This document shows positions 1,178 to 61,361 of a stretch of 64,000 bases of DNA, piece after piece. Below the pieces are notes generated by a model. It had not been told where the DNA came from. It saw only the letters and a list, made by a program, of their open reading frames with translations, and did no database searches. The position numbers were made by a program, and so were the translations under genes. Within the stretch, counting starts at the first letter, position 1. Each line of letters opens with the position of its first letter. Source of the DNA: Lachnospiraceae bacterium (GTDB lineage Bacteria > Bacillota > Clostridia > Lachnospirales > Lachnospiraceae); contig JAFLSY010000005.1 in assembly GCA_022510745.1 (NCBI GenBank), positions 153,427 to 217,426 on the forward strand, in the 5' to 3' direction.

Positions 1178-1196
1178 AATAGAGCCTCCCCAGAGA

Positions 1197-40845: not shown

Positions 40846-41032
40846 AGCATTTAATTGTACATTGATCTGGTAATCTATAGATAGTAGTGCTGGAGGTTAA
40901 AATGAGTGGCAATGGTTTGAGCAAGAGGCCAGTTCTGTTTGGAAAAATGCTGACAACTTCTTTTAGAAAAAATGCGGTGGGATTCTTATGGTAAGTATCT
41001 TGTAATATTAAATATATACCTTTGTAGCACAG

Positions 41033-41078
41033 CTTAACGGTTATGGATGTAATTTTGTCCATAACCGTTAAGTTTTTT
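41033..41078 (+). terminator. strong intrinsic terminator downstream of the rlmD tail
   Basis: CTTAACGGTTATGGA-10 nt-TCCATAACCGTTAAG, a 15 bp perfect stem followed by TTTTTT. Confidence 0.8.
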
Positions 41079-41210
41079 GTACGCTCAAAAATTAAGCGAA
41101 AAAAATAAGCAGCAATGCACAAAATAGATAAAAATGCGCAAAAATCAATAAAAAGTAAAACGCTGCGTCAGTATAAGTGAAAAATGAAAACAAAAATATG
41201 CGGAGCGGAA

Positions 41211-41239
41211 TTGACAACATTGAGTAATTGTGATATATT
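41211..41239 (+). promoter_or_regulatory. sigma-70-type promoter for the DUF262/MmeI-like/HEPN-like operon
   Basis: TTGACA (41211-41216), a 17 nt spacer ending in TGA (extended -10 TG), then TATATT (41234-41239). It lies 44 nt upstream of ATG 41283. Confidence 0.55.
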
Positions 41240-41282
41240 GATACACATAAAATCTGTACCGCATAATGAAAGGAGATATATC

Positions 41283-42443
41283 ATGAAAATAAGTAAAGCG
41301 TTAATGCAGGCTGCATCATTCAATCCAACAGAAAAATCTCATAAGATGACAGTTTTAGATATGTGTAAAAAAATTGAAAAGAAAGAAATTAGTTTACCAC
41401 TATATCAGAGAGATGTAAGTTGGACCAAGAGACAAGCGATTGAATTATTAAATTATCAGTTGTTAGGAAAAGCTCCGGTGGCGCCTATTTCTATGAACAT
41501 AATTCTTGATACGGATGATTATGTACCGCAAGTGTCATTCGATGACAGAGAAATGATAGATGAAGCGAAGATTGAAAAAGGGCAAATGTCAGTTGTAGAT
41601 GGACAGCAAAGATTGACAACAAACTATAAAGCATACTCTAACAGTGATGATTTTAGAAATATTGTGTTAGATGTTGCTAGAGGAAGGTTCCTTTTAGAAG
41701 ATGGAGCTTTTACAAAATCACAGATACCTGTAGGAATATTACTTAACAAAGAAGATGGTGTATTTTATGAATACTTAACAAGAAATAACATGATGAAAGA
41801 TCCTAGCTTTATGACAATATTGGTTCAGTGTAGATCCAAAATCCGTAGTTATTATTACACAATCAATCAGGCTGAGAATCTTACTGAAGATGAACAAATA
41901 GAATGGTTTGAAGTATTAAATAATGCAGGAAGCCGAGTGAGTGCACTTCAAATGAGATTTTCAAAGATGAAGGTTCATGGAATTGATATCTATACAATGT
42001 ATACATTAAAATTTAAAAATAGATTGCTTGAAGATGGATATGATTTCTTTTCGCCACAAAAGACAAGTGTATCATATCCGATTGCAGCACTAAATCCAGC
42101 GTATGAAATAATTATGAATAAGGCCCACACAGATGCATATGCTCCAATACCGTCTGACACAAAGGAAAATCAACTGTGTGCATTGGATTCGGCAATTCTA
42201 AAGCAGTGTTTTGCTAAAACACTTGAGGCACTTGATAAAGCTGTGACATTTATTCAGGAACAAGATGTTCATGAACCAGACAGAATTGATTATATTAATT
42301 ATATTACAGGCTATTTTGTATATAAACCAAATCCATCAGATGAAGAAATTGAGAAGCTGGTAGATTGGTATAACAAGGTGGATTTTAATAATAAGAGCAA
42401 TTCAAGAAGACGTACAATTTTTACACAACTTCTGAATATATAG
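41283..42443 (+). CDS. DUF262 (ParB/Srx-like NTPase) domain protein, no DUF1524/HNH half
   Basis: LPLYQRDVSW and VVDGQQRLTT motifs. Start at ATG 41283 after AGGAGA rather than 41184. No His-Me finger is seen in the C-terminal half. Confidence 0.8.
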   Translation: MKISKALMQAASFNPTEKSHKMTVLDMCKKIEKKEISLPLYQRDVSWTKRQAIELLNYQLLGKAPVAPISMNIILDTDDYVPQVSFDDREMIDEAKIEKGQMSVVDGQQRLTTNYKAYSNSDDFRNIVLDVARGRFLLEDGAFTKSQIPVGILLNKEDGVFYEYLTRNNMMKDPSFMTILVQCRSKIRSYYYTINQAENLTEDEQIEWFEVLNNAGSRVSALQMRFSKMKVHGIDIYTMYTLKFKNRLLEDGYDFFSPQKTSVSYPIAALNPAYEIIMNKAHTDAYAPIPSDTKENQLCALDSAILKQCFAKTLEALDKAVTFIQEQDVHEPDRIDYINYITGYFVYKPNPSDEEIEKLVDWYNKVDFNNKSNSRRRTIFTQLLNI

Positions 42444-42455
42444 GGAGATGATATC

Positions 42456-45242
42456 ATGACTGAAGCAGAACAGAGAGCGGCAGCTACAAAATTCTATAAT
42501 GATTGGCATGGTGTTGGCGATGAGAAAAGTGATTGCCAACGATTCTGGATTGAATTTTGTGGTAATGTACTGGGAATTGAGAATGTAACGCAGAAGTTGG
42601 TTTTCGAAAAGAGAGTAATCATAGATGAGCAAACCAAGTTTATTGATGTTTACATACCGGAAACCAGAGTATTGATTGAGCAAAAGAGCATTAATAAAGA
42701 TTTAAATAAAAAGGCACAGCAGTCAGACGGTTCTTTGCGTACACCTTTTGAGCAGGGACGAAACTATGCACAGTGGATGATACCTGACGAAACACCATTA
42801 TGGATAATTGCTTGCAATTTTAGGTCATTTGAAATACATGATATGAACAGGCCGAATGAAGCGCCTGTTGTTATTACATTAGAGGAAGTAAGACATAAGC
42901 TGCCTCTGTTTGATTTTATGTTTAAAAAAGAGGTCAAAGAGTTATCTCATGAAATGGAAATATCCGTAGAAGCGGGTAAAATCGTGGGAATATTGTATGA
43001 CAAGTTGCTAGAGCAGTATAAAGATCCGGATGAAAACTCATTTAAAAGCCTGAATGCACTTTGCGTAAGGCTTGTATTTTGTCTATATGCTGAAGATGCA
43101 GGCATTTTTGGTTCGCATATGATGTTCCATGACTATCTCAAAGATATACCTGTGAATGGCTTTCGGAAGGCGTTGTTGGAGCTATTTAAGATACTCGATA
43201 CCAAAACAGAAGATAGAGACAAATATTTAGCCGAAGATAATCCTAAACTGGCTGCATTTCCTTATGTGAATGGCGGCTTGTTTGCTGACGAAGATATTGA
43301 GATACCACCTTTTACTGAGGAAATCAAGGAATTGCTACTCTCAAAGGCTAGCGCAGATTTTGATTGGTCTGATATTAGTCCTACTATTTTTGGTGCAGTT
43401 TTTGAAAGTACACTAAATCCGGAAACAAGAAGAAGTGGTGGTATGCACTACACTTCGATTGAGAATATTCACAAAGTGATTGATCCGCTGTTTATGGATG
43501 CGTTGAAATCCGAGCTAAATGAAATTAGGCAGATTTCAGTAGTGCGTACTAAGAAATCTAAGTTAAGCGCATTTCAGAGTAAGCTTGCACAATTAAAGTT
43601 TCTTGATCCGGCGTGCGGTTCCGGAAATTTCCTTACAGAAACATATATTTCTTTACGGAGGCTAGAAAATGATATTCTAATTGAATTACAAAACGGACAG
43701 ATCGTATTAGGAGAAGCCATTGATCCGATTCAGGTATCTATTAGTCAATTTTATGGAATTGAGATAAATGATTTTGCTGTTACAGTTGCCAAAACTGCTC
43801 TTTGGATAGCAGAAAGCCAGATGATGAAGGAAACAGAGGACATAGTGCATATGAACCTTGATTTTCTTCCTTTGAAATCATATGCAAATATCCAAGAAGG
43901 AAATGCATTACAGCTAGATTGGGAAAGTATAGTAGCTAAAAATGAACTGAACTATATTATGGGAAATCCTCCCTTTATTGGGGCTAGATTGATGACGGTA
44001 TCACAGAAAGATGATATGCAAATTGTCTTTGGTAAGTTAAAAGGATTGGGCAATTTAGATTATGTGTCGGCATGGTATAAGAAAGCAACAGAGCTTATAG
44101 AAGGCACATCTATTAGTGTTGCCTTTGTGTCAACTAATTCTATTACACAAGGAGAACAGGTGGCAATCTTATGGGAACAGTTATTTGAAAAAGGAATACA
44201 TATAGATTTTGCGTATCGGACTTTTAAGTGGGAGAGTGAAGCAAAAGACAAAGCCGCTGTACATTGTGTGATTGTAGGATTTAGCGGTAAAATATCTACA
44301 GGTAAAAGAAAACTGTTTTATGGGGATAGTATTGTCCATGAAGTGGATAATATCAATGCTTATTTATACGATGCACCCAATGTATTTATTGTAAATCGAA
44401 AAAAGCCTCTACAAGATGTGCCTCAAATGGATTTTGGAAGTATGCCTAATGATGGTGGTTTTTTGTGTGATTATAGCGAAGAAGAAAAAAGTGTAGTTGT
44501 AGAAAAGTATCCTTTGGCAGAAAAAATGTTTAAACGCTTTGTGGGAGCAACAGAATTTTTACATAACAAAAGTAGGTGGTGTTTATGGTTAAAGGGGATT
44601 AGTCCCTCAGATATAAAAGCAATTCCTCCAATCTGGGAGGCAGTTCAAAAAGTTCAAGAAATGAGAAGTGGGAGCAATAGGGAAGCGACTAGGAAATTGG
44701 CGGCAACACCGTCTTTATTTGGCGAAATTAGACAGCCGGATAAAGATTATTTGATTGTCCCTCGACATTCATCTGAGAATAGGCGATATATTCCAATCGG
44801 ATATGCTGACAAAGATATTATATGTGGGGATGCTAATATGCTTATTCCTGATGCAGATTTGTTTTCGTTTGGTGTTTTAATGTCAAATGTTCATATGGCA
44901 TGGGTGAGAGCTATATGTGGAAGAATTAAAAGTGATTATAGATATTCCTCTGCTGTTGTATATAATAATTATCCGTGGTGCAACCCAACGGAAGAGGAGA
45001 AAGCTAAAATAGAAGCAACAGCACAGGGCATTTTAGACGCAAGAGCGCTTTATCCTGATAGTTCATTAGCAGATCTCTATGATGAAATACTTATGCCGCC
45101 AGAATTGCGAAAAGCCCATTTGAAGAATGACAAAGCAGTTATGCAGGCATATGGTTTTTCGATAAGGGACACTACTGAAGAAAAATGTGTAGCAGAACTT
45201 ATGAAAATGTATCAGGATATTATTGAAAACATTGAGGAGTAA
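42456..45242 (+). CDS. MmeI-family type IIL restriction-modification enzyme (fused endonuclease-N6A methyltransferase-TRD)
   Basis: 928 aa. The N-terminal PD-ExK-like FIDVYIPETRVLIEQKS follows an FWIEFCGNVLGI region as in MmeI. SAM motif FLDPACGSGNF and catalytic IMGNPPFIG are present. Confidence 0.85.
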   Translation: MTEAEQRAAATKFYNDWHGVGDEKSDCQRFWIEFCGNVLGIENVTQKLVFEKRVIIDEQTKFIDVYIPETRVLIEQKSINKDLNKKAQQSDGSLRTPFEQGRNYAQWMIPDETPLWIIACNFRSFEIHDMNRPNEAPVVITLEEVRHKLPLFDFMFKKEVKELSHEMEISVEAGKIVGILYDKLLEQYKDPDENSFKSLNALCVRLVFCLYAEDAGIFGSHMMFHDYLKDIPVNGFRKALLELFKILDTKTEDRDKYLAEDNPKLAAFPYVNGGLFADEDIEIPPFTEEIKELLLSKASADFDWSDISPTIFGAVFESTLNPETRRSGGMHYTSIENIHKVIDPLFMDALKSELNEIRQISVVRTKKSKLSAFQSKLAQLKFLDPACGSGNFLTETYISLRRLENDILIELQNGQIVLGEAIDPIQVSISQFYGIEINDFAVTVAKTALWIAESQMMKETEDIVHMNLDFLPLKSYANIQEGNALQLDWESIVAKNELNYIMGNPPFIGARLMTVSQKDDMQIVFGKLKGLGNLDYVSAWYKKATELIEGTSISVAFVSTNSITQGEQVAILWEQLFEKGIHIDFAYRTFKWESEAKDKAAVHCVIVGFSGKISTGKRKLFYGDSIVHEVDNINAYLYDAPNVFIVNRKKPLQDVPQMDFGSMPNDGGFLCDYSEEEKSVVVEKYPLAEKMFKRFVGATEFLHNKSRWCLWLKGISPSDIKAIPPIWEAVQKVQEMRSGSNREATRKLAATPSLFGEIRQPDKDYLIVPRHSSENRRYIPIGYADKDIICGDANMLIPDADLFSFGVLMSNVHMAWVRAICGRIKSDYRYSSAVVYNNYPWCNPTEEEKAKIEATAQGILDARALYPDSSLADLYDEILMPPELRKAHLKNDKAVMQAYGFSIRDTTEEKCVAELMKMYQDIIENIEE

Positions 45243-45245
45243 ATT

Positions 45246-46184
45246 ATGGAGCAAGAAATAAAATGTAAAACTTTATCTGCCATATTTCAAAGTGATAAAT
45301 TATTTTTAAAAGGCCCTCACAATATAGAGTTTGATACAGACGGGGAGCATCCCCTTCACATTAAAGTAGAACAGTGTGGAATGAGGGAAATCACATTGAC
45401 CTCAGATGAAGAGATTTCTGTATTTGATTTGAATGCAGTACTTACCCGTGTCGAGAGATTATTGATGATATTTGATGGTATATTTATTCCTTTGTCACAA
45501 ATGCAATTTTCGAAATCTGATATTAGTAACGAAAATGTATTAAGGGTAGCCGCAGAAAACCTCATGAAACAAAGATTATCTTACTTTTCATCAGCTAATT
45601 TTTGTACATATGATGTAGACAAACTGCTTGAATTTGATTCTATTCTTACACCTGAGTTATTTAACAAGTGGGAAAAATTACTCGAAGAATTAGATGTGGC
45701 TCATCAAGTCTATTTATATTCATTAAGTAACAGTGGTATAACAGTAGATGTTAAATGTGCATTTATGATTGAGTTGTCAGAGCCTCTTGTTGAGATCGTT
45801 AAAGAGCACACTAATTTATTTGCCTCGTTAAAACCAGGAACTCGTACTACATCTCTTAAAGATTGTTTGGATGCGTTAATTACAAAATATGGTGTGGATA
45901 TTTTTAAAAGAGAATTGTCGGATAATTACGAACAATTTTTGTTAGCGATGGTAAATAGTCGCGTTCGTATTATGCATATTAAACGTGAGCAAAAGGGAAT
46001 ATATCTTAATGGAGCCGAATCTATTTTATATGCTTTAAAAATGAGCTTGTTATATCGTCGTATATTATTTGAACTGTTGAATATTGAAGAAAGTTATTAC
46101 AAAGAAGCATTAGAGAAAGCTGTTTCAAACATAAATGGATGGAATGATATTTTAGCGCATTTTTTAAAGAAATTGCCGGAATAA
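45246..46184 (+). CDS. uncharacterised protein with C-terminal HEPN-like Rx4H motif
   Basis: 312 aa. The ATG lies 3 nt after the MmeI-like stop and its GAGGAG RBS lies inside the upstream gene. A helical C-terminal half carries NSRVRIMH (R-x4-H). The family call is tentative. Confidence 0.6.
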   Translation: MEQEIKCKTLSAIFQSDKLFLKGPHNIEFDTDGEHPLHIKVEQCGMREITLTSDEEISVFDLNAVLTRVERLLMIFDGIFIPLSQMQFSKSDISNENVLRVAAENLMKQRLSYFSSANFCTYDVDKLLEFDSILTPELFNKWEKLLEELDVAHQVYLYSLSNSGITVDVKCAFMIELSEPLVEIVKEHTNLFASLKPGTRTTSLKDCLDALITKYGVDIFKRELSDNYEQFLLAMVNSRVRIMHIKREQKGIYLNGAESILYALKMSLLYRRILFELLNIEESYYKEALEKAVSNINGWNDILAHFLKKLPE

Positions 46185-46285
46185 TTAAATATGATAATAT
46201 GCCTTATGAAATTTGTATTAAGGTAGAATTGTAACATAAAACCAAATGTACAAAAGTTTAATATAAGTACAAGGAGAAAAATTTA

Positions 46286-48085
46286 ATGATAGAAAAAATC
46301 GAAATACAATATTTTAGATCTATTTATAGAGCAACTATTTCTAATATTAGTGATATAAATATATTTTCGGGAAAGAATGATGCAGGAAAATCAAATGTAT
46401 TGAAAGCGCTTAATTTATTTTTTAATAATTATGTTGTATTTGAGGGAGATTATGCTTTTAAAGAAAATTATAATTTACAGCGTCTAGATGAGGTGCGTAG
46501 AGAAACAGTAAAGGGTAAGCAGTTTATACAGATAAAGATTACTTTTAAACGTGGGCAACAATATGAAAAAACACTGCCGGATAGTTTTACAATATCAAAA
46601 AAATGGAACAGAGAAGATGAAACCCCACAGATAACGGATAATATAGAAATACAGTTAAAAAAACAGGGGAGAACTTATAATGCAAGGAGTAGGGCATCAC
46701 TTACTAGATTTCTGAATAATGTAAAATACATATATATTCCTGCAATCAAAGATCAAAGATTGTTTGGTGAAATGCTAGAGAAATTACAGAATATTGTATA
46801 CTCAAAGAAATTATCAGGAAACGAACAACTTACTTCATCATTATCAACACTTTTTGAAAATGTAGTTATAGCGACTAAAGAATTAAGTGATGAATTCAGA
46901 GAGGCAACAAGTGTTGATTCAATGATAGCCACTCCGACAGAGGTAGACGAATTATATAAAACCTTGCGTATAATTACAACAATGGCAGACAGCACTGTTT
47001 CATTAGAGAACAGAGGTGATGGAATTAGAGTTAGATATATTCCAAGTATTCTTAATTATATAGCTCAAAATGCGAGTGAAAATTATATTTGGGGATTTGA
47101 AGAGCCTGAAAATTCTTTAGAATTTAATATGGCAAGAGAAATGGCAGAAGATTTTTATCAAACATATGCTAAAAATAGTTTAATAATGTTAACAACACAT
47201 TCCCCAGCATTTATTGATTTGGGATATAGAGATAAGGGTAAGGGATATAGATGTTATAAATCATTATATGAGACCAAAATAGTTGATTTTGAGCACGCAG
47301 AGCATCTTCCATCTTTGGCAGAGGAACTGGGTTATATACAAATTTTACGACGCCAATATGACGAGTATAAAAGTATTGTAGAAGAAAATAAAAAAATGAA
47401 AGATAAAATTGAAGATTTAGAAACAGAATTGCTAATTTCGCAAAAACCGGTTTTATTAACAGAAGGAAAGACAGATGCAAAAATTTTAACAGTTGCATGG
47501 GAAAAATTATATGATTATGAATGCCCATTTGATATTAAAAGTTGTAACTTACTTGATGATCAAGAAGAAAATGCAATCGCAGGTGCGGGAATTCTAAAAA
47601 ATACACTTTGCGCATGGAGATTTGATTCTGTTAAAACTATAATAGGCTTATTTGATAACGATACAACAGGATTGAAAGAATTCGGATTAGATGGAAATTA
47701 TCATGCAGTTACAGGAAAACCATGGAAAATTCACACTAATAAAAAAGGTTATGCTTTTGTTATTCCGGCAAATACTGAGATGCTTAAAGAGATAGCAAGG
47801 GCAGGGAAGCTTTCAATTGAGTTTTTATTCGGGTATGATAGTTTATGTAAAGAAGTGAATGGAAAAAAACTTGAATTTGAACCTATGATAACAACAGTAT
47901 TGGTAAACGGTACAAAAGTAGATTTAGAAGTGACTGATAATATTGAATGGTATTATAATAAAATAAAAGATAATTCTAAAGTTGATTTTGCATATACCGT
48001 CGTCCCAACTTTAGAGAAAGAAGAGTTTGAAAATTTTCGAGATATTTTTTCTATTGTACTTGAGATATTAGAAAGTATAAATTGA
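46286..48085 (+). CDS. ABC-type ATPase fused to Toprim nuclease domain (OLD-family / fused PARIS AriA-AriB-like)
   Basis: Walker A GKNDAGKSN, Walker B-like FEEPENSLE, H-loop LTTHSPAF and a coiled-coil linker. Toprim-like LLTEGKTDAKIL (Glu) and LFDNDTTG (DxD) follow. Confidence 0.75.
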   Translation: MIEKIEIQYFRSIYRATISNISDINIFSGKNDAGKSNVLKALNLFFNNYVVFEGDYAFKENYNLQRLDEVRRETVKGKQFIQIKITFKRGQQYEKTLPDSFTISKKWNREDETPQITDNIEIQLKKQGRTYNARSRASLTRFLNNVKYIYIPAIKDQRLFGEMLEKLQNIVYSKKLSGNEQLTSSLSTLFENVVIATKELSDEFREATSVDSMIATPTEVDELYKTLRIITTMADSTVSLENRGDGIRVRYIPSILNYIAQNASENYIWGFEEPENSLEFNMAREMAEDFYQTYAKNSLIMLTTHSPAFIDLGYRDKGKGYRCYKSLYETKIVDFEHAEHLPSLAEELGYIQILRRQYDEYKSIVEENKKMKDKIEDLETELLISQKPVLLTEGKTDAKILTVAWEKLYDYECPFDIKSCNLLDDQEENAIAGAGILKNTLCAWRFDSVKTIIGLFDNDTTGLKEFGLDGNYHAVTGKPWKIHTNKKGYAFVIPANTEMLKEIARAGKLSIEFLFGYDSLCKEVNGKKLEFEPMITTVLVNGTKVDLEVTDNIEWYYNKIKDNSKVDFAYTVVPTLEKEEFENFRDIFSIVLEILESIN

Positions 48086-48116
48086 AAAAAATGAATTATT
48101 GATTTAATAAGATATG

Positions 48117-48161
48117 GTGTATCGTGGTAAAGATTAAAGCTTTGCTGCGATACACTTTTTT
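48117..48161 (+). terminator. intrinsic terminator after the ATPase-Toprim gene
   Basis: GTGTATCG...CGATACAC stem followed by TTTTTT. A homologous terminator precedes module copy 2. Confidence 0.6.
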
Positions 48162-48209
48162 ATTAAAATGATATGGTTCATCTTGGATAATCATTGTTTT
48201 TTAAATCTC

Positions 48210-49012
48210 AAGGGGGTCAGGGGGATATGCCCTCTGCAAGCAAATTTTCATAAGTTTCTGTGCAGAAAAACTTGTGAAAATTTTGCCTGTGGACGCCCGT
48301 AAGCAGTGCTTGCTATTCTGGCAGCGTATATACGCAGGCAGTGCTTGCTATTCGTCCACATGTCATGACACAGGCAGTGCTTGCTATATCACTTCAAACT
48401 TTCCGTAGGGAGTTTGCGGTTTTTAGGCTGCATAGGCAGTCTGTCCAAAAACCATATAGGCGTTAATGCCAAATTTTTTCAAAAAGCTTTTTTAAATAGG
48501 TACGTTTTTTGCATATTTATCATTTACAATGATGCCATACAAAATATTTTAAGAAAGGTACCCTATAGGGGACACTTCATTTCTTTGTAATCTCTGTGTG
48601 GGCATATTGTTCTTATATGCTTTTTAGTCTGACAGACAGAGCAGATAAAAACTGAATATGGTATCACATACAGGACATGAGGATATGTGTAGCCGCTATG
48701 CAGGTACGCCATGATATGCCTGCTCCGGATCATTGCTGGAGTGAACACGAGGAAATGCCAAACAGTGCATTGAAGTAAAGGCATGGAGCGAGAAATATTT
48801 GGCAAAATGCACAGCAGGTGTGCAGGGCGATGAAGCATATCCGTGATAATGATACTTCCAGATTTCGGAGAAATCTTGAAATCTCGGTCACAAAGATGAC
48901 GGTGCGATTCCGATGTGGGCAGAGTACTGACCTGCCACTTGTATGTGAATTTATGGAATGAAAAATGTGTGGGCATAGCAGAGGATCTGCAGTCTTTGAG
49001 ATGATAAAAAAC
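48210..49012 (+). ncRNA. candidate large structured noncoding RNA / conserved noncoding module, copy 1
   Basis: ORF-poor 0.8 kb that aligns by eye along its length with 56641-57365. Hairpins are conserved with compensatory or G-U changes that work only on the + strand. Exact ends and transcription are unknown. Confidence 0.45.
48303..48387 (+). repeat. three direct copies of GCAGTGCTTGCTAT at 35-36 nt spacing (iteron-like)
   Basis: Copies at 48303-48316, 48338-48351 and 48374-48387. Module copy 2 has a single copy (56736-56749). Confidence 0.8.
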
Positions 49013-49033
49013 AGATAAAAAATACAGCGTTAG

Positions 49034-49070
49034 GGCAGTTATAAACACTTTAGTTTATGCTGCCTTTTTT
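49034..49070 (+). terminator. hairpin plus T-run at the 3' end of module copy 1
   Basis: GGCAG-TT-ATAAAC-loop-GTTTAT-G-CTGCC followed by TTTTTT. It sits immediately before a GGAGGGA RBS. Confidence 0.5.
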
Positions 49071-49139: not shown

Positions 49140-49277
49140 ATGTTGGATGAATGGAGCGGACTGGCAGATCTACTTGCTAACCTGATTGAAAAGTACGCAG
49201 CAGATTTGGATATTGCGGATATGCCCGACACAAAATTAGACATGGAAAATAAAGAGGAATTATTGGAGAAAGAATAG
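49140..49277 (+). CDS. small hypothetical protein (45 aa) conserved downstream of both module copies
   Basis: MLDEWSGLADLLANLIEKYAADLDIADMPDTK... shares an L-I-x-K-Y-x-x-D...(D/E)MP(D/N)T pattern with the 33 aa ORF at 57493-57594. Confidence 0.3.
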   Translation: MLDEWSGLADLLANLIEKYAADLDIADMPDTKLDMENKEELLEKE

Positions 49278-49378
49278 AATTCTGTATTGCAAGCAGCACA
49301 GCCATGAGATATAATAATCGTGATAATGCTGTCCAAACAAAAGCCGAAAATATGAAAGAAAGGCAAAGGAGAATACAT

Positions 49379-50455
49379 ATGGATAATCAAAAGCACATGG
49401 GAAAAGATAAAGAGGGAGTAATTTTTCCGATTGCTCCAAATCTTTCCGAAATGGGTGACAGTTATTTGGAGTTCATAGAAAAAATCAAAAGTGAAATTCA
49501 GAAGCAAAGAGTTTCTGTTGTAATGAATGCCAATGCCAGTATGATCTGCCTTTATTGGAATATCGGTAGGGCTATTTTAGCGAAACAGGAAGAAGAGAGA
49601 TGGGGAACAAAGGTCATAGATCGTATGGCAAAAGACTTGAAAGATGCGTTCCCGGAAATGTCTGGTTTTTCTCCTCGAAACATCAAGTATATGCGTAAAT
49701 TTGCCCAATGTTGGCCGGATTATGAAATTGTGCAACGGGTCGTTGCACAAATACCGTGGCGTACAAATATAACATTAATGGACAAATTAAAAACGGAGGA
49801 AGAACGCATATGGTATGCTGGTAAAACGATAGAAAATGGCTGGAGTAAAGCCATTCTGGAGTTGCAGATTCAGAGCAGATTGATGGAGCGTACCGGAAAG
49901 ACGGTTAATAATTTTCCTGCTGCATTGCCGCCTCTTGATTCAGACATGGCAAATCAGATATTTAAAGATCCTTATCTGTTTGATTTCTTGGGAACAGATA
50001 TGCCAAGGCGGGAAGTGGAAATTGAGCAGAAACTGACCGAGCATATACAGAAGTTTCTTTTGGAACTTGGGCAGGGATTCGCTTTTGTTGGCAGACAGGT
50101 ACACTTAGAAATAGGCGGTCAGGATTTTTATATTGATCTTTTGTTTTACCATTTAAAGCTACGCTGCTATGTTGTGATTGAACTGAAAGCCTGTGACTTT
50201 GAGCCGGGATTTATCAGCCAACTTAATATGTATCAGAATGCGGTTAATGATATTTTACGGCATCCGGACGATAAACCTACTATTGGACTTTTACTGGTCA
50301 AAGGAAAGAATGAAACAGTGGTTGAGTATTCTTTAGCTGGGTATCAAAACCCGATTGGTGTTGCGGAATGGAAAAACCAGATTACACAGTCCTTGCCGGA
50401 AGAGTTACAAAGCAGTCTGCCGTCTATCGAGGAAATAGAGAAAGAGTTGGAATAG
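49379..50455 (+). CDS. DUF1016 / YhcG-family PD-(D/E)XK nuclease-like protein
   Basis: YWNIGRAIL...WGTKVIDRMAKDL...SPRNIKYMRKFA N-terminal region and a C-terminal IDLLFYH...VVIELK nuclease core. Start at ATG 49379 after AAGGAG. Confidence 0.8.
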   Translation: MDNQKHMGKDKEGVIFPIAPNLSEMGDSYLEFIEKIKSEIQKQRVSVVMNANASMICLYWNIGRAILAKQEEERWGTKVIDRMAKDLKDAFPEMSGFSPRNIKYMRKFAQCWPDYEIVQRVVAQIPWRTNITLMDKLKTEEERIWYAGKTIENGWSKAILELQIQSRLMERTGKTVNNFPAALPPLDSDMANQIFKDPYLFDFLGTDMPRREVEIEQKLTEHIQKFLLELGQGFAFVGRQVHLEIGGQDFYIDLLFYHLKLRCYVVIELKACDFEPGFISQLNMYQNAVNDILRHPDDKPTIGLLLVKGKNETVVEYSLAGYQNPIGVAEWKNQITQSLPEELQSSLPSIEEIEKELE

Positions 50456-50510: not shown

Positions 50511-52187
50511 ATGAGTAAAGAAAAAGTCAAAGTCTATACCTATACCAGAGTATCCACAGCCATGCAGATAGACGGTTATTCATTGGATGCGCAGAAAGCC
50601 AGAATGAAGGCATTCGCTGACTATAATGAATATGAGATTGTGGGTACATATGAGGATGCCGGAAAGTCCGGTAAATCCATTGAGGGAAGAATGGAATTCA
50701 ACCGCATGATGGAAGATATAAAGGCAGGGAAAGACGGTGTTTCTTTTGTCCTTGTTTTTAAGTTATCCAGATTTGGCAGGAATGCGGCTGATGTACTTTC
50801 TACTTTACAGATCATGCAGGATTTTGGCGTAAACCTGATCTGTGTGGAGGACGGTATTGATTCCTCCAAAGATGCGGGAAAGCTGATGATCTCCGTCCTG
50901 TCAGCGGTTGCTGAAATTGAACGGGAGAATATCCGAGTTCAGACGATGGAGGGGCGTATCCAGAAAGCCCGTGAGGGAAAGTGGAACGGCGGCTTTGCGC
51001 CCTATGGTTATCAGCTGACAGACGGGAAACTTCAGATCAATGAAGAAGAGGCAGCGGCTATCAGGGTGATCTTTGACCAGTATGTGAATACGGATATCGG
51101 CGCTAACGGAGTGGCAAAATATCTTGAAAATCACGGTATCCGTAAAATACAGCGGCAGAATGGGAAAAATCCGCTCTTTGATGCACATCTGATAAGGATC
51201 ATCTTAAAAAATCCGGTGTATTGCGGGAAGATTGCCTATGGACGCAGAAAGACGGAAAAAGTTCACGGAACACGGAACGAGTATCATCTTGTGGAGCAGG
51301 ACAATTACATTCTGGTGGACGGACAACATGAAGCAATCATTGCTGAAGATGTTTGGCAGGCTGCACAGGTAAAACTGATTGCACAGGCAAAGAAGTATGA
51401 GCATGTGAACAAGGCAAAGGATACACGGACGCATCTTCTTTCTGGAATTGTCAAATGTCCGGTCTGCGGTGCGGGTATGTATGGCAACAAGTGTATCAAG
51501 AATAAAAAGGACGGTACGAAATATAAGGACTTTTATTATTATGGCTGTAAACACCGGAAGATGCTTCGTGGTCATAAATGCGACTATAATAAGCAGATAC
51601 GGGAAGAACTTTTGGACGATGCCGTGGCGGAGATCATAGTAAAACTGGTGAGCAATCCCAAGTTTGCTGCCATGATGCAGGAAAAGATCAACAGAAAGGT
51701 TGATACCACTGCCATAGACGGGGAATTAGCTAATTATGAGAAGCAGCTCCGCCAGTTCTATTCTATTAAGACTAAGCTTGCGGAAGAAATAGATTCCCTC
51801 GATCCGGACGACAAACATTATGTCAAACGGAAAGCTGACCTTGATGACAGGCTCTACCGGATGTATGATAAGATAGAAGATGCAGAGACAAAGCTTATTG
51901 AAGCTAGGGCGAAGAAGCAGGCAGTTGAAGCGGAGAAGCTGACCGGAGATAATATCTATAAGGTGCTGATCTACTTTGAAAAGCTCTATGCCGTGATGAA
52001 TGAGGTGGAACGCCGTCAGTTTATGGAAACGCTGATCTCTGAGATACAGGTTTATGAGGATAGGCAGCCTAATGGTCAGTGGCTGAAATCCATTAAGTTC
52101 AAGCTACCGATCATTGAGGAAGACATAGAGATGAGTTTGGACAATGATAAGCATGTTGAGACGGTTGCCCTATTATCCCAAATGTGA
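50511..52187 (+). CDS. large serine recombinase
   Basis: Resolvase catalytic domain (YTRVSTAMQ, SRFGRN), recombinase domain, zinc ribbon CPVCG...YYYGC and a coiled coil. The last 11 codons (HVETVALLSQM) mirror the rlmD core. Confidence 0.92.
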   Translation: MSKEKVKVYTYTRVSTAMQIDGYSLDAQKARMKAFADYNEYEIVGTYEDAGKSGKSIEGRMEFNRMMEDIKAGKDGVSFVLVFKLSRFGRNAADVLSTLQIMQDFGVNLICVEDGIDSSKDAGKLMISVLSAVAEIERENIRVQTMEGRIQKAREGKWNGGFAPYGYQLTDGKLQINEEEAAAIRVIFDQYVNTDIGANGVAKYLENHGIRKIQRQNGKNPLFDAHLIRIILKNPVYCGKIAYGRRKTEKVHGTRNEYHLVEQDNYILVDGQHEAIIAEDVWQAAQVKLIAQAKKYEHVNKAKDTRTHLLSGIVKCPVCGAGMYGNKCIKNKKDGTKYKDFYYYGCKHRKMLRGHKCDYNKQIREELLDDAVAEIIVKLVSNPKFAAMMQEKINRKVDTTAIDGELANYEKQLRQFYSIKTKLAEEIDSLDPDDKHYVKRKADLDDRLYRMYDKIEDAETKLIEARAKKQAVEAEKLTGDNIYKVLIYFEKLYAVMNEVERRQFMETLISEIQVYEDRQPNGQWLKSIKFKLPIIEEDIEMSLDNDKHVETVALLSQM

Positions 52188-56283: not shown

Positions 56284-56319
56284 TGGGGGTGGGTTTTGTT
56301 GCATAAAGACGAATAGGTA

Positions 56320-56454
56320 TTGTGTCCGATTTGCAGGAGCAAGACGCGGATTAAGATACGCCCTAACACGGTGCTTGAAAATTTCCCGCTATTCTACCCG
56401 AAGTGCAAACAAGAATCATTAATCAATGTAAAAAAGTTACATACATCAGTTTAA
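56320..56454 (+). CDS. cysteine-rich KTR-type small protein, N-terminus disrupted by in-frame TAG
   Basis: CPICRSKTRIKIRPNTVLENFPLFYPKCKQESLINV matches the Cys-rich KTR pattern. Upstream in frame: TTG TTG CAT AAA GAC GAA TAG(56314) GTA TTG. Confidence 0.5.
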   Translation: MCPICRSKTRIKIRPNTVLENFPLFYPKCKQESLINVKKLHTSV

Positions 56455-56562
56455 TAAAACAGCATGAAAATAAAATCTAAAATGGAATATGAAAAAAGAA
56501 GATGGAATTTACATAAACTTAGGATAGAAGAAACCGACAAAATACAGCCTATTGGACACATC

Positions 56563-56610
56563 AAGGTGTATTGAAATGAAGTAAAAAACTTCAATTCGAT
56601 ACACCTTTTT
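56563..56610 (+). terminator. intrinsic terminator preceding module copy 2
   Basis: AAGGTGTAT...ATACACCTT stem with an inner TGAAGT-AAAAA-ACTTCA hairpin, followed by a T-run. Confidence 0.6.
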
Positions 56611-56640
56611 CGTTACAAAAAATTACTGTTTTTTCATACA

Positions 56641-57365
56641 AAGGGGGTGCAGGGGGATATGCCCTCTGCAAGCCAATTTTTTCAAGTTTCCGATTAGGAC
56701 AAACTTGGGAAAATTATGCCTGTGGACATCCACAGGCAGTGCTTGCTATGTCACTTCAAACTTTCCATAAGGAGTTTGCGGTTTTTTTGGTGGCATAGGC
56801 AGTCTGTCCAAAAACCATACAGGCGTTAATATCAAATTTTTTAAATAATTTTTTCTAAATAGGCAAGTTTTTTGCGTATTTATCATTTAGAATGATGTCA
56901 TACAAATTATTTTAAGAAAGGTACTCTCTAGGGACACTTCATTTCTTTATAATCTCAGTGTGGGTATATTGTTCTTATATGCTTTTGGACTGACAGACTG
57001 AGTAGATAAAAACTGAATATTGTTTCACATACAGAACGTGAGGATATGTGTAGCCACTATGTAAGTGCGCCATGATATGCCTGCTCCGGATTAACGCTGG
57101 AGTGAGTGTGAGGGAGTGTCGGATATGGCATTAAAGCAAAGGCATGGAGCGATAGAACCTGACAAAATGCACAGCAGTTGTGCGGGGCGATGAAGCATAT
57201 CCGTGATAATAATACTTCTGGATTTTAGGAAGAAAATTCAGTCATGAAATGACGGTGCGATTCCGATGTGGGCAGAGTGCTGACCTGCCACTTGTATGTG
57301 AATTTATGGAATGAAAAATGTGTGGGTATAGCAGAGGATATGCACTCTCTTAGATGATAAAAATC
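56641..57365 (+). ncRNA. candidate large structured noncoding RNA / conserved noncoding module, copy 2
   Basis: Aligns with 48210-49012 but lacks the 70 nt repeat insertion. No ORF of 60 aa or more lies on either strand between 56284 and 57615. Confidence 0.45.
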
Positions 57366-57492
57366 AACATGGAAAACACACCAGGATTTACAGCGAAAGT
57401 GCAGGAGGGAGAGGAATAATGTGGAGCATAAGAGAAAAATATATTATGATGATCTAAAGGATAATACTGCCTTCAAACACTGCAATGATGTT

Positions 57493-57594
57493 ATGAGCAG
57501 ATTAATACTGAAATACGAATCGGATATACTGACAAAGTTAGGTTGTAAAGAAATGCCAAACACACATTGCAAAGAAACGGGTATTGTGCTATGA
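57493..57594 (+). CDS. small hypothetical protein (33 aa), homolog of 49140-49277
   Basis: MSRLILKYESDILTKLGCKEMPNTHCKETGIVL holds the same position relative to the module as the copy 1 ORF. Confidence 0.3.
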   Translation: MSRLILKYESDILTKLGCKEMPNTHCKETGIVL

Positions 57595-57624
57595 TACATA
57601 CATCGCAATGCGTGGGTGATCAAT

Positions 57625-57825
57625 ATGGATATAGCGAAAAGAATAACAGAACTTCGTGAAGGAACTGGTGAGAATAGAAAAGAATTTTCGACTCATACGG
57701 GGATACCTGTCCGCACATTAGAGGACTGGGAGGCGGGGAGGCGAACTCCGCCGGAATATATTCCGCGGCTGATAGAGTATCAGCTGAAGTATGAGAAGCT
57801 GGTAAAAAGCAATAAGAAGGATTAA
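57625..57825 (+). CDS. small HTH (XRE-like) DNA-binding protein
   Basis: MDIAKRITELREGTGENRKEFSTHTGIPVRTLEDWEAGRRTPP. ATG 57625 preferred to GTG 57616. Confidence 0.7.
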   Translation: MDIAKRITELREGTGENRKEFSTHTGIPVRTLEDWEAGRRTPPEYIPRLIEYQLKYEKLVKSNKKD

Positions 57826-58040
57826 ATCCGTCGAATTCGACGGGTTCAAAATAATTATAACTGTGTGGAATTCGAGACGGTTAAATTAGATTATGGGCGT
57901 TTGATCATTTTTGTGAGACCACGAAATTGCCCACTGTAGGAAAAGAAACTAAAGAGATTTGCTCGATTATATGTTGACCCGCTACGCTTGCTATTTTATT
58001 TTCCCATATTGAAAATACACAAGACGATGAGGTGAACGAA

Positions 58041-59045
58041 ATGGATGGCAGTGATGACATGAATAAAAACTCAAATGTTATTATCTATACAACCGATGAC
58101 GGTTTAACAAAGATTGAGACAACTTTTGACGGAGATACCGTCTGGTTGTCTCTTGATCAGATGTCAGAACTGTTTCAGAGAGATAAATCAACGATCTCTA
58201 GGCATATAAAAAATATATTTTTAGAAGGTGAACTATCAAGAGAATCAGTTGTTGCAAATTTTGCAACAACTGCAACTGATGGGAAAACATATCAGGTTGA
58301 TTATTACAATCTTGATGTGATTATCTCGGTCGGTTATCGTGTTAAATCTAAACGCGGTACGCAATTCAGAATCTGGGCAACCGGAGTATTAAAAGAATAC
58401 ATGCGAAAAGGATTTGCGCTGGACGATGAGCGCCTAAAGAATTTGGGCGGCGGTGGTTATTTTAAAGAATTACTTGAGCGGATCAGAGACATTCGGGCTT
58501 CTGAGAAAGTATTTTACAGGCAGGTTTTGGAAATCTATGCTACCAGCATTGACTATGATCCAAAAGCTGAAATTTCCATAGATTTTTTTAAAAAGGTTCA
58601 AAATAAAATTCATTACGCTATCCATGGGCAAACTGCAGCAGAGGTCCTCTATACAAGAGCGGATGCTGAGAAAGAATTTATGGGGCTCACAACATTTGCC
58701 GGAACACAGCCAACGCTAAAAGAAGCTGTCATTGCCAAGAATTATCTGGATGAAAAAGAACTTCGGGCTATGGGGCAGCTTGTATCCGGATATTTGGATT
58801 TTGCCGAGCGTCAAGCGGAACGGGAACAGGTAATGACTATGGAGGATTGGACAAAACATCTGGATCGTATTCTTACAATGAGCGGAGAACAATTGTTGCA
58901 AGGTAGTGGAAGTATCGCACGTATGCAGGCAGTTGATAAAGCAACCAACGAATACAGAAAATATAAAGCCAGAACCCTCAGTGATGTGGAGCGGGATTAT
59001 TTTGATTCCATAAATATCCTAAAACAAAAGATTGATAAAAAGTAA
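58041..59045 (+). CDS. RhuM family virulence-associated protein
   Basis: IIYTTDDG...VWLSLDQMSELFQRDKSTISRHIKNIF...YYNLDVIISVGYRVKSKRGTQFRIWAT is the RhuM signature. Start at ATG 58041 after GAGGTG. Confidence 0.85.
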   Translation: MDGSDDMNKNSNVIIYTTDDGLTKIETTFDGDTVWLSLDQMSELFQRDKSTISRHIKNIFLEGELSRESVVANFATTATDGKTYQVDYYNLDVIISVGYRVKSKRGTQFRIWATGVLKEYMRKGFALDDERLKNLGGGGYFKELLERIRDIRASEKVFYRQVLEIYATSIDYDPKAEISIDFFKKVQNKIHYAIHGQTAAEVLYTRADAEKEFMGLTTFAGTQPTLKEAVIAKNYLDEKELRAMGQLVSGYLDFAERQAEREQVMTMEDWTKHLDRILTMSGEQLLQGSGSIARMQAVDKATNEYRKYKARTLSDVERDYFDSINILKQKIDKK

Positions 59046-59055
59046 AAAGTGTTAT

Positions 59056-59142
59056 CCCATCATTGAGGAAGATATGGAGATGAGTTATGACGATGATAAA
59101 TATATGGAGACAGTATGTTTATTGTTCCGATCATCCATCTGA
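59056..59142 (+). pseudogene. C-terminal 28-codon remnant of a large serine recombinase plus att core
   Basis: PIIEEDMEMSYDDDKYMETVCLLFRSSI-stop parallels LPIIEEDIEMSLDNDKHVETVALLSQM-stop of the intact recombinase. The rest of the gene is absent. Confidence 0.7.
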
Positions 59143-59195
59143 AGGAATATAACAAAAATCCCGAAATCGGAGATATTTTGCCAAAATAAATTTAC

Positions 59196-59304: not shown

Positions 59305-60198
59305 ATGGCAATCACAATATTAGCAGCATCGGGATCGTTTGCAGTACAAGGCGGAAAGCAGACTTCATCGGCAAAACCGACGTGGAATCCGAATAAAGTA
59401 TACAAGTATCTGGAAGATATGAATCAGGGATTTCAGAATTACAAAAAACAGGCGGTTTCTTATTATCGTTCTATGATTTTGCAGCAGGAAGGCGACGGAA
59501 CGATGAGCGTGGAAGACTTGAAAAAAGAAATTAAAGAGTGGTTCCCGGAGTACACTCTGACAGATTCTGAGCCATCCAAAGTTGTTACAGGAAAATTTTA
59601 TCTTTACATAGATCAATCCCAGCTGAAGAAAATGGCGTCTGATCTGGAGTGCCGGGCGAAGGTATACGGTTTGATGGACAGCGAACTTCAAGGGAAGAAA
59701 GGCTATACATTGCAGTACAGCGACGGTAGAAATGTTACCTCCCATCTTACGGGAAGTATTTTTTCTCTGTGTGAGGTAAACCGAAAATATGCCGGCGCCG
59801 ATGGAATTCCTTATCGCGGCAGCTGCAGCTCGGATCATCCGTTTTCTTCGTCGAACTCCCACGCACAAGTCCGTAGCATGAGCTTCCTCAATGACCACAT
59901 TGACCCGGCGAAATCAGCGGCGAAAGACAGAAAGGCAGCAGCGGTGAAAGCGGCAGAAAGGGCAGCGAAGAAGCGGGCCGAACAGAAACTGGAGGCCAAG
60001 AAAGCGGCGGCAAAAGAAGCTAGTGAGAAAGAAACGGCGAAAAAGGCTGCAGCCAAGAAAGTGAAGAAAAATGAACTGGCACAGAAACGGAATGCGTTGA
60101 GAGTAGAGAGAGAAGATGAGGCAAAGGAGGCCGTTGAGGAATTGCTGGAGCGGCAGATGGAAGCAGGTGCAGGAACTTTCTTTGACACCACAGCATAA
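59305..60198 (+). CDS. hypothetical protein with Lys/Ala/Glu-rich C-terminal tail
   Basis: 297 aa ORF with a GGAGA RBS. The last ~100 aa are low-complexity KAAAK/EAK repeats. Confidence 0.6.
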   Translation: MAITILAASGSFAVQGGKQTSSAKPTWNPNKVYKYLEDMNQGFQNYKKQAVSYYRSMILQQEGDGTMSVEDLKKEIKEWFPEYTLTDSEPSKVVTGKFYLYIDQSQLKKMASDLECRAKVYGLMDSELQGKKGYTLQYSDGRNVTSHLTGSIFSLCEVNRKYAGADGIPYRGSCSSDHPFSSSNSHAQVRSMSFLNDHIDPAKSAAKDRKAAAVKAAERAAKKRAEQKLEAKKAAAKEASEKETAKKAAAKKVKKNELAQKRNALRVEREDEAKEAVEELLERQMEAGAGTFFDTTA

Positions 60199-60275
60199 GC
60201 TCCAAAATAATGAGTCTTAATTATGCTCTTACTGCATGCAGATTACGTAATGCCGACATCAAGGAAGGATAGTAT

Positions 60276-60950
60276 ATGATCCGAGCAGTGATTTTTGATA
60301 TGTTTGAAACATTAATCACTCACTACCGAAGTCCATTGTATTTTGGCGCGCAGATGGCAGCGGATGCGGGTATACCAGAGGAGAAGTTTTTAGAACTTTG
60401 GGAGCCTACAGGATATGCGCGTACGATAGGGAAAATGACACTGGAAGAGGCATTGGAGATGATTCTTCGGAAGAATCAGTGTTACTCTAAAGAAATATTG
60501 AAGACAATTGTGGATAAGCGAGTGGCGGCAAAAGAAGAGTGTTTTAGACATCTTCATCCGGAAATTATTCCAATGCTTATGAAGCTAAAAGAAAAAGGCA
60601 TCTTAATTGGATTAATCAGCAACTGTTTTTCTGAGGAGGTAGATGTAATCCGTAAAAGTGCACTATTTCCATATTTTGATGCTGCTTATCTTTCTTATGA
60701 GCAGGGAATTCAGAAACCTGACGAGGAGATTTTTAGCAGATGCATGGAAGAACTTTCCGTGAGGGCGGATGAATGCCTGTATGTCGGAGATGGTGGCAGT
60801 TATGAACTTGAAACTGCTGAAAGACTAGGCATGACAGCAATACAAGCAGTTTGGTATTTAAAAGAGGGAATGCCGCAACGATTACAAATAAATCATAACT
60901 TCTTTCAGGCGGAATCTCCGTTTAGCGTTTTAAGCTATTTAGGGGGTTAA
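60276..60950 (+). CDS. HAD family hydrolase
   Basis: DxDxT motif (VIFDMFETL), LISNC and GDGGSYELE motifs. Confidence 0.85.
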   Translation: MIRAVIFDMFETLITHYRSPLYFGAQMAADAGIPEEKFLELWEPTGYARTIGKMTLEEALEMILRKNQCYSKEILKTIVDKRVAAKEECFRHLHPEIIPMLMKLKEKGILIGLISNCFSEEVDVIRKSALFPYFDAAYLSYEQGIQKPDEEIFSRCMEELSVRADECLYVGDGGSYELETAERLGMTAIQAVWYLKEGMPQRLQINHNFFQAESPFSVLSYLGG

Positions 60951-61010
60951 GTGTTAGTGTTAATATGAGTTGTGCAAAAATTGTATCAAAAGAATCGGAG
61001 GTAAATTATA

Positions 61011-61361
61011 ATGTTATTTATTGAATACCCCAAATGCTCAACCTGTCAGAAAGCTAAAAAGTGGCTGGATACACATGGTATTACCTATACCGAGCGTCAT
61101 ATTGTTGAGGACAATCCTTCTTATGACGAGTTAAAACGGTGGCATGCGAGGAGCAGCATATCGCTTAAAAAGTTTTTCAATACCAGTGGTATGCTGTATA
61201 AGGAAATGCAGCTTAAAGACAAGTTGCCTGCCATGAGCGAAGAAGAACAATTGAAGCTTCTTGCTTCTAATGGAATGCTTGTGAAACGTCCGATTGTTAT
61301 TGATGAAGACATGGTTCTTACAGGTTTTAAAGAAGCCGAGTGGGAAGAAAAACTTTTATAA
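61011..61361 (+). CDS. ArsC/Spx/YffB family protein
   Basis: 116 aa with N-terminal YPKCSTCQKAKKWL and LVKRPIV motifs. Confidence 0.8.
   Translation: MLFIEYPKCSTCQKAKKWLDTHGITYTERHIVEDNPSYDELKRWHARSSISLKKFFNTSGMLYKEMQLKDKLPAMSEEEQLKLLASNGMLVKRPIVIDEDMVLTGFKEAEWEEKLL

Follow-up and report, generated by a model that had tools for sequence, protein, structure and literature searches.

Two members of the RNA family of Tn916 canT and Rfam pemK in tandem serine-recombinase elements of a Lachnospiraceae bacterium

The stretch of 64,000 nucleotides (nt) analysed here, hereafter called the window, comes from a Lachnospiraceae bacterium (assembly GCA_022510745.1, contig JAFLSY010000005.1, positions 153,427 to 217,426 of the forward strand) and carries two copies of a noncoding module with a structured RNA core of about 300 nt. 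Judged by homology in sequence and structure, both copies can be assigned to the RNA family that contains canT of the conjugative transposon Tn916 and whose 3' third is modelled by Rfam as pemK. The core of copy 2, the main subject of this study, lies at 57007-57317 and that of copy 1 at 48646-48964, both on the plus strand. Because the family is present in Rfam and one of its members has a demonstrated function, the two copies are new members of an already known kind of RNA, and the module is not a new kind of element. Analysis of homology, structure, strand and synteny suggests that the core is probably a cis-acting, structured leader RNA which acts as a processive antiterminator, copy 2 being the cassette of the second of two tandem elements.

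The 64-pair structure of the core is supported by covariation. It was obtained from an alignment (A5) of 40 cores, comprising 38 Lachnospiraceae loci and the two window copies, in which the pemK hairpins were set as in Rfam. The covariance model built from this alignment (R1) has 310 positions and 64 pairs, and a search of the window with R1 returns the two copies only. Copy 2 scores above copy 1 (331 bits over the full length, E 2.7e-100, versus 296 bits), though it is copy 1 that sits in a complete element. RNAalifold applied to a plain MAFFT alignment of the 40 cores found de novo the closing helix P1 (ACAUACAG / UUGUAUGU), an 8-base-pair (bp) P2 and the helices P5, P6, P8 and P9; the three pemK hairpins are predicted in this way as well. 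The two strands of P1 are located at 57027-57034 and 57292-57299 in copy 2 and at 48666-48673 and 48939-48946 in copy 1. In A5, 98.1% of the cells pair, compared with 27-45% when the partners are slid by 1-3 columns, and 12 pairs show compensatory changes. Of the A5 cells of the three pemK hairpins (a, b and c), 94-99% are paired, and hairpin a has six compensatory pairs. Among 50 diverse members, the alignment of which (A6) was fitted to R1 so that pair counts are inflated toward the structure, 91.3% of the cells pair (39-47% with slid partners), 55 of the 64 pairs are compensatory and the covariation score reaches 0.352, the value for comparison being 0.066 at most. Support is weak for P4 and for part of P6.

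The frequent G-U pairs on the plus strand of the core, together with the absolute fold energy, argue that the RNA is read toward the downstream genes, as is canT. The minimum free energy of the core is -88 kcal/mol on the plus strand versus -67 kcal/mol on the minus strand, a difference of about 21 kcal/mol in favour of the plus strand. Single-sequence folding z-scores (-2.7 on plus versus -2.8 on minus) do not discriminate between the strands.

RF02913 (pemK) is the sole Rfam family matched by the core and corresponds to its 3' third. The pemK sub-domain of copy 2 is located at 57206-57269 on the plus strand (34.6 bits) and consists of AUAAUAAUACUUC and three hairpins, including a T-loop-like GG-UGCGAUU-CC; that of copy 1 is at 48846-48916 on the same strand (34.1 bits). 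As seen with cmscan, both copies carry the marks of pemK, namely the single-stranded AUAAUGAUACUUC, three adjacent hairpins enclosed by one U-A pair, and GG-UGNNAUU-CC as the last of them. Host and orientation also agree with pemK, the RNA being found in Lachnospiraceae (Firmicutes) upstream of protein genes on the same strand. Other Rfam hits lay far under their cut-offs and were discarded: RT-2 (16.6 versus 40 bits), Clostridiales-2 (about 14 versus 58.6 bits) and hits to microRNA and small nucleolar RNA families.

The connection with Tn916 came through a Lachnospiraceae contig (L014) whose second, G+C-rich pemK RNA (65 bits) sits between sigma-like and helix-turn-helix (HTH) genes and a serine recombinase gene, and shares its upstream motifs with the window core. 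This contig carries two dissimilar members of the RNA family, one A/T-rich and one G+C-rich, at 1091-1397 (plus strand) and 3995-4303 (minus strand), in elements that face each other and have a serine recombinase each. Used as a blastn query against plasmids, the G+C-rich RNA led to Tn1549 on pMG2200 (L110) and to a Tn916 copy on pCF10 (L111), and in both elements the match falls between an orf8-like HTH gene and xis. The pemK model scores 55 bits in this gap of Tn916 (L111 3999-4099) and 57.8 bits in that of Tn1549 (L110 5165-5262). R1 matches Tn916 over all 310 positions (L111 3843-4140) with 30 bits and an E-value of 5e-7 (1.7e-8 in a small search), the E-values of R1 being rough in general owing to a shortened calibration. 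Full-length R1 matches are also obtained for Tn1549 (L110 5008-5308, 28 bits) and for the second L014 RNA (29 bits). In Tn916, UGAAAACUGAAUA at the 5' end is identical, and P1, P2, CGCCAUGA, P6, GAGCGAU and the pemK domain are in register with R1. Identical or near-identical motifs shared by the window family with Tn916 and Tn1549 are UGAAAACUGAAUA, CGCCAUGA, GAGCGAU and GUGAUAAUGAUACU. Tn916 carries a further Rfam RNA, SQ2397 (RF03532, 'cis-regulator of HTH transcription factor'; 229.8 bits at L111 2550-2779), between orf9 and orf7; it has no counterpart in the window.

Experiments in Tn916 have defined canT as a processive antiterminator that acts in cis, is orientation-specific and works without any other gene of the element (Wirachman & Grossman, PLoS Genet 2024; PMC11658703). 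Its active 452-bp fragment, given as +126 to +577 after the orf8 stop codon, was mapped from the Methods of that paper to L111 3842-4293 and starts 1 nt before the R1 match. By the coordinates of the same paper, the Delta162 deletion (+229 to +390, L111 3945-4106) removes the pemK domain. The S3 mutation, a change of ATA to TGC at +283 (L111 3999-4001) that inactivates canT (PMC11658703), hits the triplet with which the pemK match begins, inside the invariant GUGAUAAUGAUACU. All A5 cores have AUA at the equivalent place, which lies at 57206-57208 in copy 2 and at 48846-48848 in copy 1.

The two copies of the module had been proposed to be homologous, and the computed alignment is continuous and not made of short patches. 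Comparison of the window against itself with blastn aligns 48369-49013 with 56731-57366 (86.2% identity over 646 nt) and 48189-48316 with 56621-56749 (80.8% over 130 nt). The MAFFT alignment (A1) of copy 2 (56621-57366) with copy 1 (48189-49013) is unbroken at 81-86% identity, and similarity drops off beyond both limits. For core homologues in Lachnospiraceae, nhmmer E-values are 1e-60 or lower, and for more distant members of the family cmsearch gives values from 1e-6 to 1e-34. The cores of the two copies are 81% identical to each other, which does not exceed the values reached with cores of other species (up to 85%). Local duplication was therefore ruled out as the source of copy 2, and the two copies are better explained by two arrivals of an element.

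In copy 2 the module is a composite of an opening terminator, a hairpin-rich 5' segment of about 290 nt, a spacer of about 105 nt and the core. Several further statements of the initial annotation agree with our analysis. No open reading frame (ORF) of at least 60 amino acids (aa) is present in 56284-57615, and the module is noncoding and structured, with 9-16 stops per frame in all six frames of 56611-57418 and a fold supported by covariation. Each copy is preceded by a hairpin with a U-run, copy 2 does lack the terminal hairpin and U-run which copy 1 has at 49033-49070, and the 70-nt insertion missing from copy 2 turns out to be two additional units of 36 nt in copy 1. The small ORFs downstream agree in part only. 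Copy 2 has a GGAGGGA ribosome-binding site (RBS), a 12-codon ORF (57419-57457) and a short ORF (57493-57594) within 57404-57594 on the plus strand. A 12-codon ORF with a GGAGG-type RBS is indeed present after both copies, but the peptides are unrelated and the ORF is not a conserved feature elsewhere. The short ORFs described as homologous (57493-57594 and 49140-49277) show a partial similarity that is weak on reading of the sequences. Other loci have an ORF of 54-58 aa or of 50 aa at this position instead, and the RBS and small ORFs of copy 2 are not conserved in the family.

A protein-coding origin of the region, either through a minus-strand ORF such as 48563-49048, analogous to orf5 of Tn916, or as a decayed gene, was considered and rejected, and we regard its chance as practically negligible. 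Many loci do have minus-strand ORFs of 71-177 aa across the core that group with one another, and GenBank annotates such an ORF in pCF10 (L111 3942-4193, minus strand, 83 codons, the old 'orf5'). However, the stops in every frame of copy 2 speak against a gene, the core lengths in the 40 loci are incongruent modulo 3 (classes of 22, 10 and 8), and the substitutions between the copies lack a 3-nt periodicity (18, 17 and 12). In Tn916, mutations of the orf5 start codon and nonsense mutations in orf5 are without phenotype (PMC11658703). The minus-strand ORFs over the RNA, in the window and in many other loci, are probably by-products of the conserved RNA which populate the protein databases as hypothetical proteins.

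The opening intrinsic terminator of copy 2 (56563-56610, plus strand; -23.9 kcal/mol, z -7.8, followed by U5) is homologous to that of copy 1 (48116-48156, plus strand; -22.8 kcal/mol, with a U-run), the z-score being about -7.5 for the pair. A similar type of terminator precedes the module in several other genomes. The conserved 5' segment follows on the plus strand at 56619-56902 in copy 2, as drawn from nhmmer profile matches, an alignment (A4), RNAalifold and hairpin folds, and at 48188-48540 in copy 1; the nhmmer profile finds it in most of the Lachnospiraceae loci. In copy 2 it comprises a G-rich hairpin (56648-56668), a long A/U hairpin (56675-56715), a palindrome (56718-56737) with AGTGCTTGCTAT at 56738-56749, and a terminator-like hairpin (56757-56778) with U7, after which an A/T-rich stretch is found. 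In A4, 17 of the 41 RNAalifold pairs of the segment are compensatory and many G-U pairs fall on the plus strand; the long A/U hairpin shows several compensatory changes. No Rfam family matches the segment, and neither Tn916 nor Tn1549 has it.

The units of 36 nt are confined to this 5' segment upstream of the canT-like RNA. Each consists of a perfect palindrome of 16-18 nt and then AGTGCTTGCTAT (or, in its other designation, a palindrome plus AGUGCUUGCUAU). Copy 1 has three of them (48290-48387, with AGTGCTTGCTAT at 48305, 48340 and 48376), copy 2 has one (56717-56749), and other loci have one to three, for example L008 at 5345-5444. The palindromes vary in sequence while their symmetry is kept, and between loci they shift through G-C, G-U and A-U pairs on the plus strand, which argues for hairpins in a plus-strand transcript.

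The spacer of copy 2 (56903-57006, plus strand), about 105 nt long, is common only to the two window copies in A4. In about 30 other loci its position is taken by a gene for a 115-aa HTH_11 protein (Pfam HTH_11), and elsewhere the core follows directly on the 5' segment. The window has no regulator gene directly upstream of the core, in contrast to these sister loci. The idea that the spacer is a decayed HTH_11 gene was rejected, since tblastn with the HTH_11 protein gives no signal in the window.

At the rlmD site the window holds, in tandem, two elements that belong to a single family. Integration appears to have taken place within the rlmD codons for HVETVCLLS, in what looks like successive accretion that gave rlmD an element-encoded C-terminal tail. 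The rlmD ORF carries HVETVCLLS near 40.55 kb (40540-40570) and the recombinase of element 1 ends in HVETVALLSQM at 52152-52187. Element 1 has a very strong left-end terminator at 41031-41074 on the plus strand (19-bp stem and U-run), between the rlmD stop codon and the first cargo gene. Downstream of copy 1 are the post-core intrinsic terminator (49033-49070), a YhcG/DUF1016 nuclease gene (49304-50455) and the large serine recombinase gene (50511-52187), all on the plus strand and the two genes assigned by Pfam. The cargo of element 1 (41184-48085) is restriction- and defence-like and includes a protein with a GmrSD N-terminal domain, an MmeI-type restriction-modification enzyme, a weak HEPN (Apea) match and an AAA_15 ATPase. 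Further upstream, a tRNA-Gly (CCC) gene at 36540-36610 precedes the genes for an HtrA-like protease, an HD-domain protein and rlmD, and has no relation to the RNA module.

Copy 2 is followed on the plus strand by genes for an HTH protein (57616-57825) and RhuM (58032-59045), both recognized by Pfam, after which sister loci continue with a serine recombinase. In element 2 this gene is reduced to a 59-nt remnant of its 3' end (59056-59114, plus strand), 81% identical to 52107-52165, within the region of remnant and right junction (59056-59151) that encodes YMETVCLLF (in 59101-59151), which marks the right end of the element. On the downstream side copy 1 is placed like canT, with YhcG and then the serine recombinase; copy 2 has only RhuM and the remnant there. 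The description of copy 2 as part of a decayed element was correct. Since RhuM precedes the recombinase in sister loci (L016, L024, L025, L037 and L052) and a remnant is left here, element 2 has lost its recombinase gene by deletion. However, the suggestion that retention of the module after this decay argues for selection is weak, because one deletion took the recombinase while RhuM and the HTH gene are still intact. The good preservation of copy 2 is by itself no proof of selection, as its neighbours are also intact and a recent deletion would leave the same picture.

For the same reason, copy 2 might be an inert leftover of the RNA family, preserved solely because the damage is recent; we take this as a serious possibility although we lean against it. 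The loss of the recombinase gene and of the conserved post-RNA terminator fits such a fate, and so do the intact RhuM and HTH neighbours, which suggest that a short time has elapsed, and a substitution at a G conserved in the other 39 cores. Orphan or truncated copies are also known elsewhere (L032, L046, L010 and L029). However, none of the 64 consensus pairs is broken in copy 2, it has three deviations at 164 near-invariant columns, fewer than copy 1, and its R1 score is the higher of the two.

Outside the window, a scan with a 20-mer pattern found five metagenome contigs, which have in common with the window only the 3' 300 nt or so, the terminator and the RBS. With another pattern, chosen from a stretch of the core free of bias, 48 genome loci were obtained, 47 of them with the whole core, nearly all from Lachnospiraceae and many from mouse-gut catalogues. 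One match of each pattern scan (L001 and L031) was due to chance and was discarded. R1 finds 42 full-length matches in IMG/VR contigs and three more truncated at the contig end, whereas an exact 18-mer scan of IMG/VR returned nothing. Neither the plasmids of PLSDB nor the phages of INPHARED gave a blastn match to the copy 2 module.

The usual cassette order is terminator, 5' segment, HTH_11 gene (where present), core, terminator, small ORF, RhuM or YhcG gene (where present) and large serine recombinase gene. Among the 31 instances with sufficient downstream sequence (29 other loci and the two window copies), 21 have a large serine recombinase gene that is co-oriented with the module and lies no more than 3 kb downstream, the distance taking one of two fixed values. 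The claim that the module defines its element family holds to the extent that it is a hallmark of this family of serine-recombinase elements and occurs in 47 other loci, but the RNA is not bound to serine recombinases or to rlmD. It is found before xis and a tyrosine integrase gene in Tn916 and Tn1549, before ParA/ParB genes in some contigs and before a MobV-like gene in two loci (L003 and L026). In IMG/VR contigs, sigma-like and HTH genes lie upstream of the RNA and recombinases downstream. A G+C-richer branch of the family has the RNA directly before parA-parB-like genes (IMG/VR contigs L063, L066, L071, L081 and L102), and in L063 the RNA is also downstream of xis-int. The gene that follows the RNA in L026 and in L003 (where it spans +714 to +2099 from the core) encodes a 461-aa protein without a Pfam hit, which contains HLDEGTPHIH, a sequence that we take to resemble motif III of MOBV relaxases and not a recombinase.

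The residence of the family in conjugative and mobilisable elements raises the question whether the module is a folded single-stranded DNA element, such as a single-strand origin or the transfer origin of a mobilisable island. A strand-specific function is expected for such an element, G-T wobbles are tolerated in single-stranded DNA, and the position of the RNA upstream of the HLDEGTPHIH protein in L003 and L026 would fit if its presumed MOBV assignment is right. However, canT is active in a chromosomal lacZ reporter without conjugation machinery, and loss of the T1 terminator suppresses canT mutants (PMC11658703). Moreover, the transfer and single-strand origins of Tn916 have been mapped elsewhere and Pfam detects no relaxase in the window elements, and we consider this possibility very unlikely.

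A strong, sequence-conserved terminator is located about 55 nt past the core in 39 of 45 distinct loci. This raises the alternative that the RNA is a conditional attenuator, riboswitch-like or controlled by a protein, which governs the adjacent terminator and expression of the recombinase only. Rfam classes pemK as cis-regulatory, the core has many conserved unpaired nucleotides and a T-loop-like hairpin, and in about 30 loci it is directly preceded by the HTH_11 gene, all of which would suit an attenuator. However, the 3' strand of P1 is separated from the terminator stem by about 55 nt, and reading of the sequences, without a formal search for alternative structures, revealed no overlapping alternative pairing. 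Copy 2 and the members in Tn916 and Tn1549 have no adjacent terminator, and the Tn916 homologue acts on heterologous and multiple downstream terminators without an element protein (PMC11658703). An attenuator limited to the adjacent terminator is for these reasons improbable. The same conserved terminator would allow a discrete transcript of about 400 nt, made up of core and terminator, in most loci, as would be expected of a free-standing small RNA acting in trans. However, copy 2 and the members in Tn916 and Tn1549 lack the terminator, and canT supplied in trans neither complements nor interferes (PMC11658703), which leaves a trans-acting RNA with a very small chance.

In the reading that we prefer, namely that of a processive antiterminator, the nascent core would fold into the multi-helix domain closed by P1, and the folded RNA would convert, in cis, the RNA polymerase that has just made it to a terminator-resistant form. 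Such a polymerase could pass the post-RNA terminator and continue into the small ORF, RhuM or YhcG gene and recombinase gene. Once the element has been excised and circularised, transcription could also proceed through the junction of its ends and beyond the left-end terminator, as in Tn916. The opening terminator may insulate the cassette from the cargo genes, and element 2 later lost both its recombinase gene and its post-RNA terminator. The antitermination activity of the window elements in this scheme is predicted from their homology to canT.

A number of observations weigh against this reading, in addition to the fitting of A6 to R1 and the rough E-values mentioned above. Both window copies miss the RF02913 gathering score of 34.8 bits, which is an annotation threshold and not a biological feature, by 0.2-0.7 bits; among sister Lachnospiraceae loci, 16 of 18 pass it with 36-47 bits. 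The core of copy 1 has 12 deviations at the 164 near-invariant columns, the most of all 40 cores, and copy 2 has an A where the other 39 cores have a G (AUAAUAAUAC), which is one mismatch in a 13-mer. Consensus scans for a promoter in the A/T-rich end of the 5' segment and upstream of it gave nothing above shuffled expectation and no consistently placed -35 and -10 elements. Pfam finds no conjugation genes in 40.8-59.2 kb, so the role of canT, which is expression of the conjugation genes after excision, is not simply transferable to the window elements. This lowers the case for the same biological role and leaves membership in the same RNA family untouched. A terminator placed right behind an unconditional antiterminator is also puzzling and hints at further regulation. 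It is conceivable, though we think it rather unlikely, that the whole cassette is a regulated antitermination switch peculiar to the non-conjugative serine-recombinase islands of Lachnospiraceae, in which the 5' leader is a second RNA or regulator-binding element that gates the polymerase, and that the orphan copy 2 still sends terminator-resistant transcription out of its dead element into the chromosomal genes next to it (59305-61361).

Compared with canT, the window family is homologous across the whole domain of about 300 nt, has the same orientation to downstream recombination genes and shares the invariant AUA. At the level of the family, regulator genes upstream and recombinase genes downstream are a further likeness, and the left-end terminator of element 1 parallels the T1 insulator of Tn916. 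However, the window elements differ in being small islands that combine a large serine recombinase with restriction- or defence-type cargo, and in lacking xis, a tyrosine integrase and conjugation genes. The window subfamily has a conserved terminator right after the RNA, an HTH_11 gene (or nothing) in place of the sigma-like orf7 and orf8 of Tn916, and a hairpin-rich 5' segment that Tn916 and Tn1549 do not have. Relative to pemK, a candidate cis-regulatory motif whose Rfam model covers 61 positions, the RNA described here is a covarying unit of about 300 nt with P1 and five more helices 5' of the motif.

Other antitermination systems resemble the window RNA in the mode of action proposed for it. 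In the account given in the canT paper, conAn1/conAn2 of pLS20 form a bipartite system for processive antitermination of the conjugation operon which needs a protein partner, while the EAR RNA of the Bacillus subtilis eps operon and the put RNAs of phage HK022 are protein-independent RNA antiterminators (PMC11658703). As is proposed for the window RNA, conAn is a leader RNA of a long mobile-element operon and gives read-through of internal terminators. In contrast to conAn, canT needs no element protein, and no sequence relationship to the window family was seen, though no test for one was made. EAR and put are cis-acting structured RNAs that act processively on the polymerase that made them, as is predicted for the window RNA. 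They are, however, unrelated in sequence to the window RNA, and no Rfam hit to such a family was obtained in the window. With a length of about 70 nt and two hairpins, the put RNAs are much simpler than the 300-nt domain.

The identity of pemK with canT, the covarying architecture of 300 nt and the tie to serine-recombinase defence islands appear to be unreported in the literature searched. The authors of the canT study stated that no meaningful structure could be derived, did not pursue comparative analysis and made no link to pemK (PMC11658703). The main text of the 2017 paper introducing 224 motifs does not mention pemK. The loci compared here show that pemK, as a motif of 61 nt, makes up the 3' third of an RNA of about 300 nt closed by a long-range helix and that canT of Tn916 belongs to the same family, which gives a functional label to a widespread 'orphan' family of Rfam. 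The structure supported by covariation can guide mutagenesis and structural studies of a processive antiterminator that is independent of proteins. For annotation, it explains the 'empty' stretches of 0.3-0.8 kb beside recombinase genes in islands of Firmicutes, as well as spurious ORFs on the opposite strand that resemble orf5. Beyond Tn916 and its relatives, the RNA family also extends to gut Lachnospiraceae, in small islands with a serine recombinase and with restriction and defence genes as cargo.

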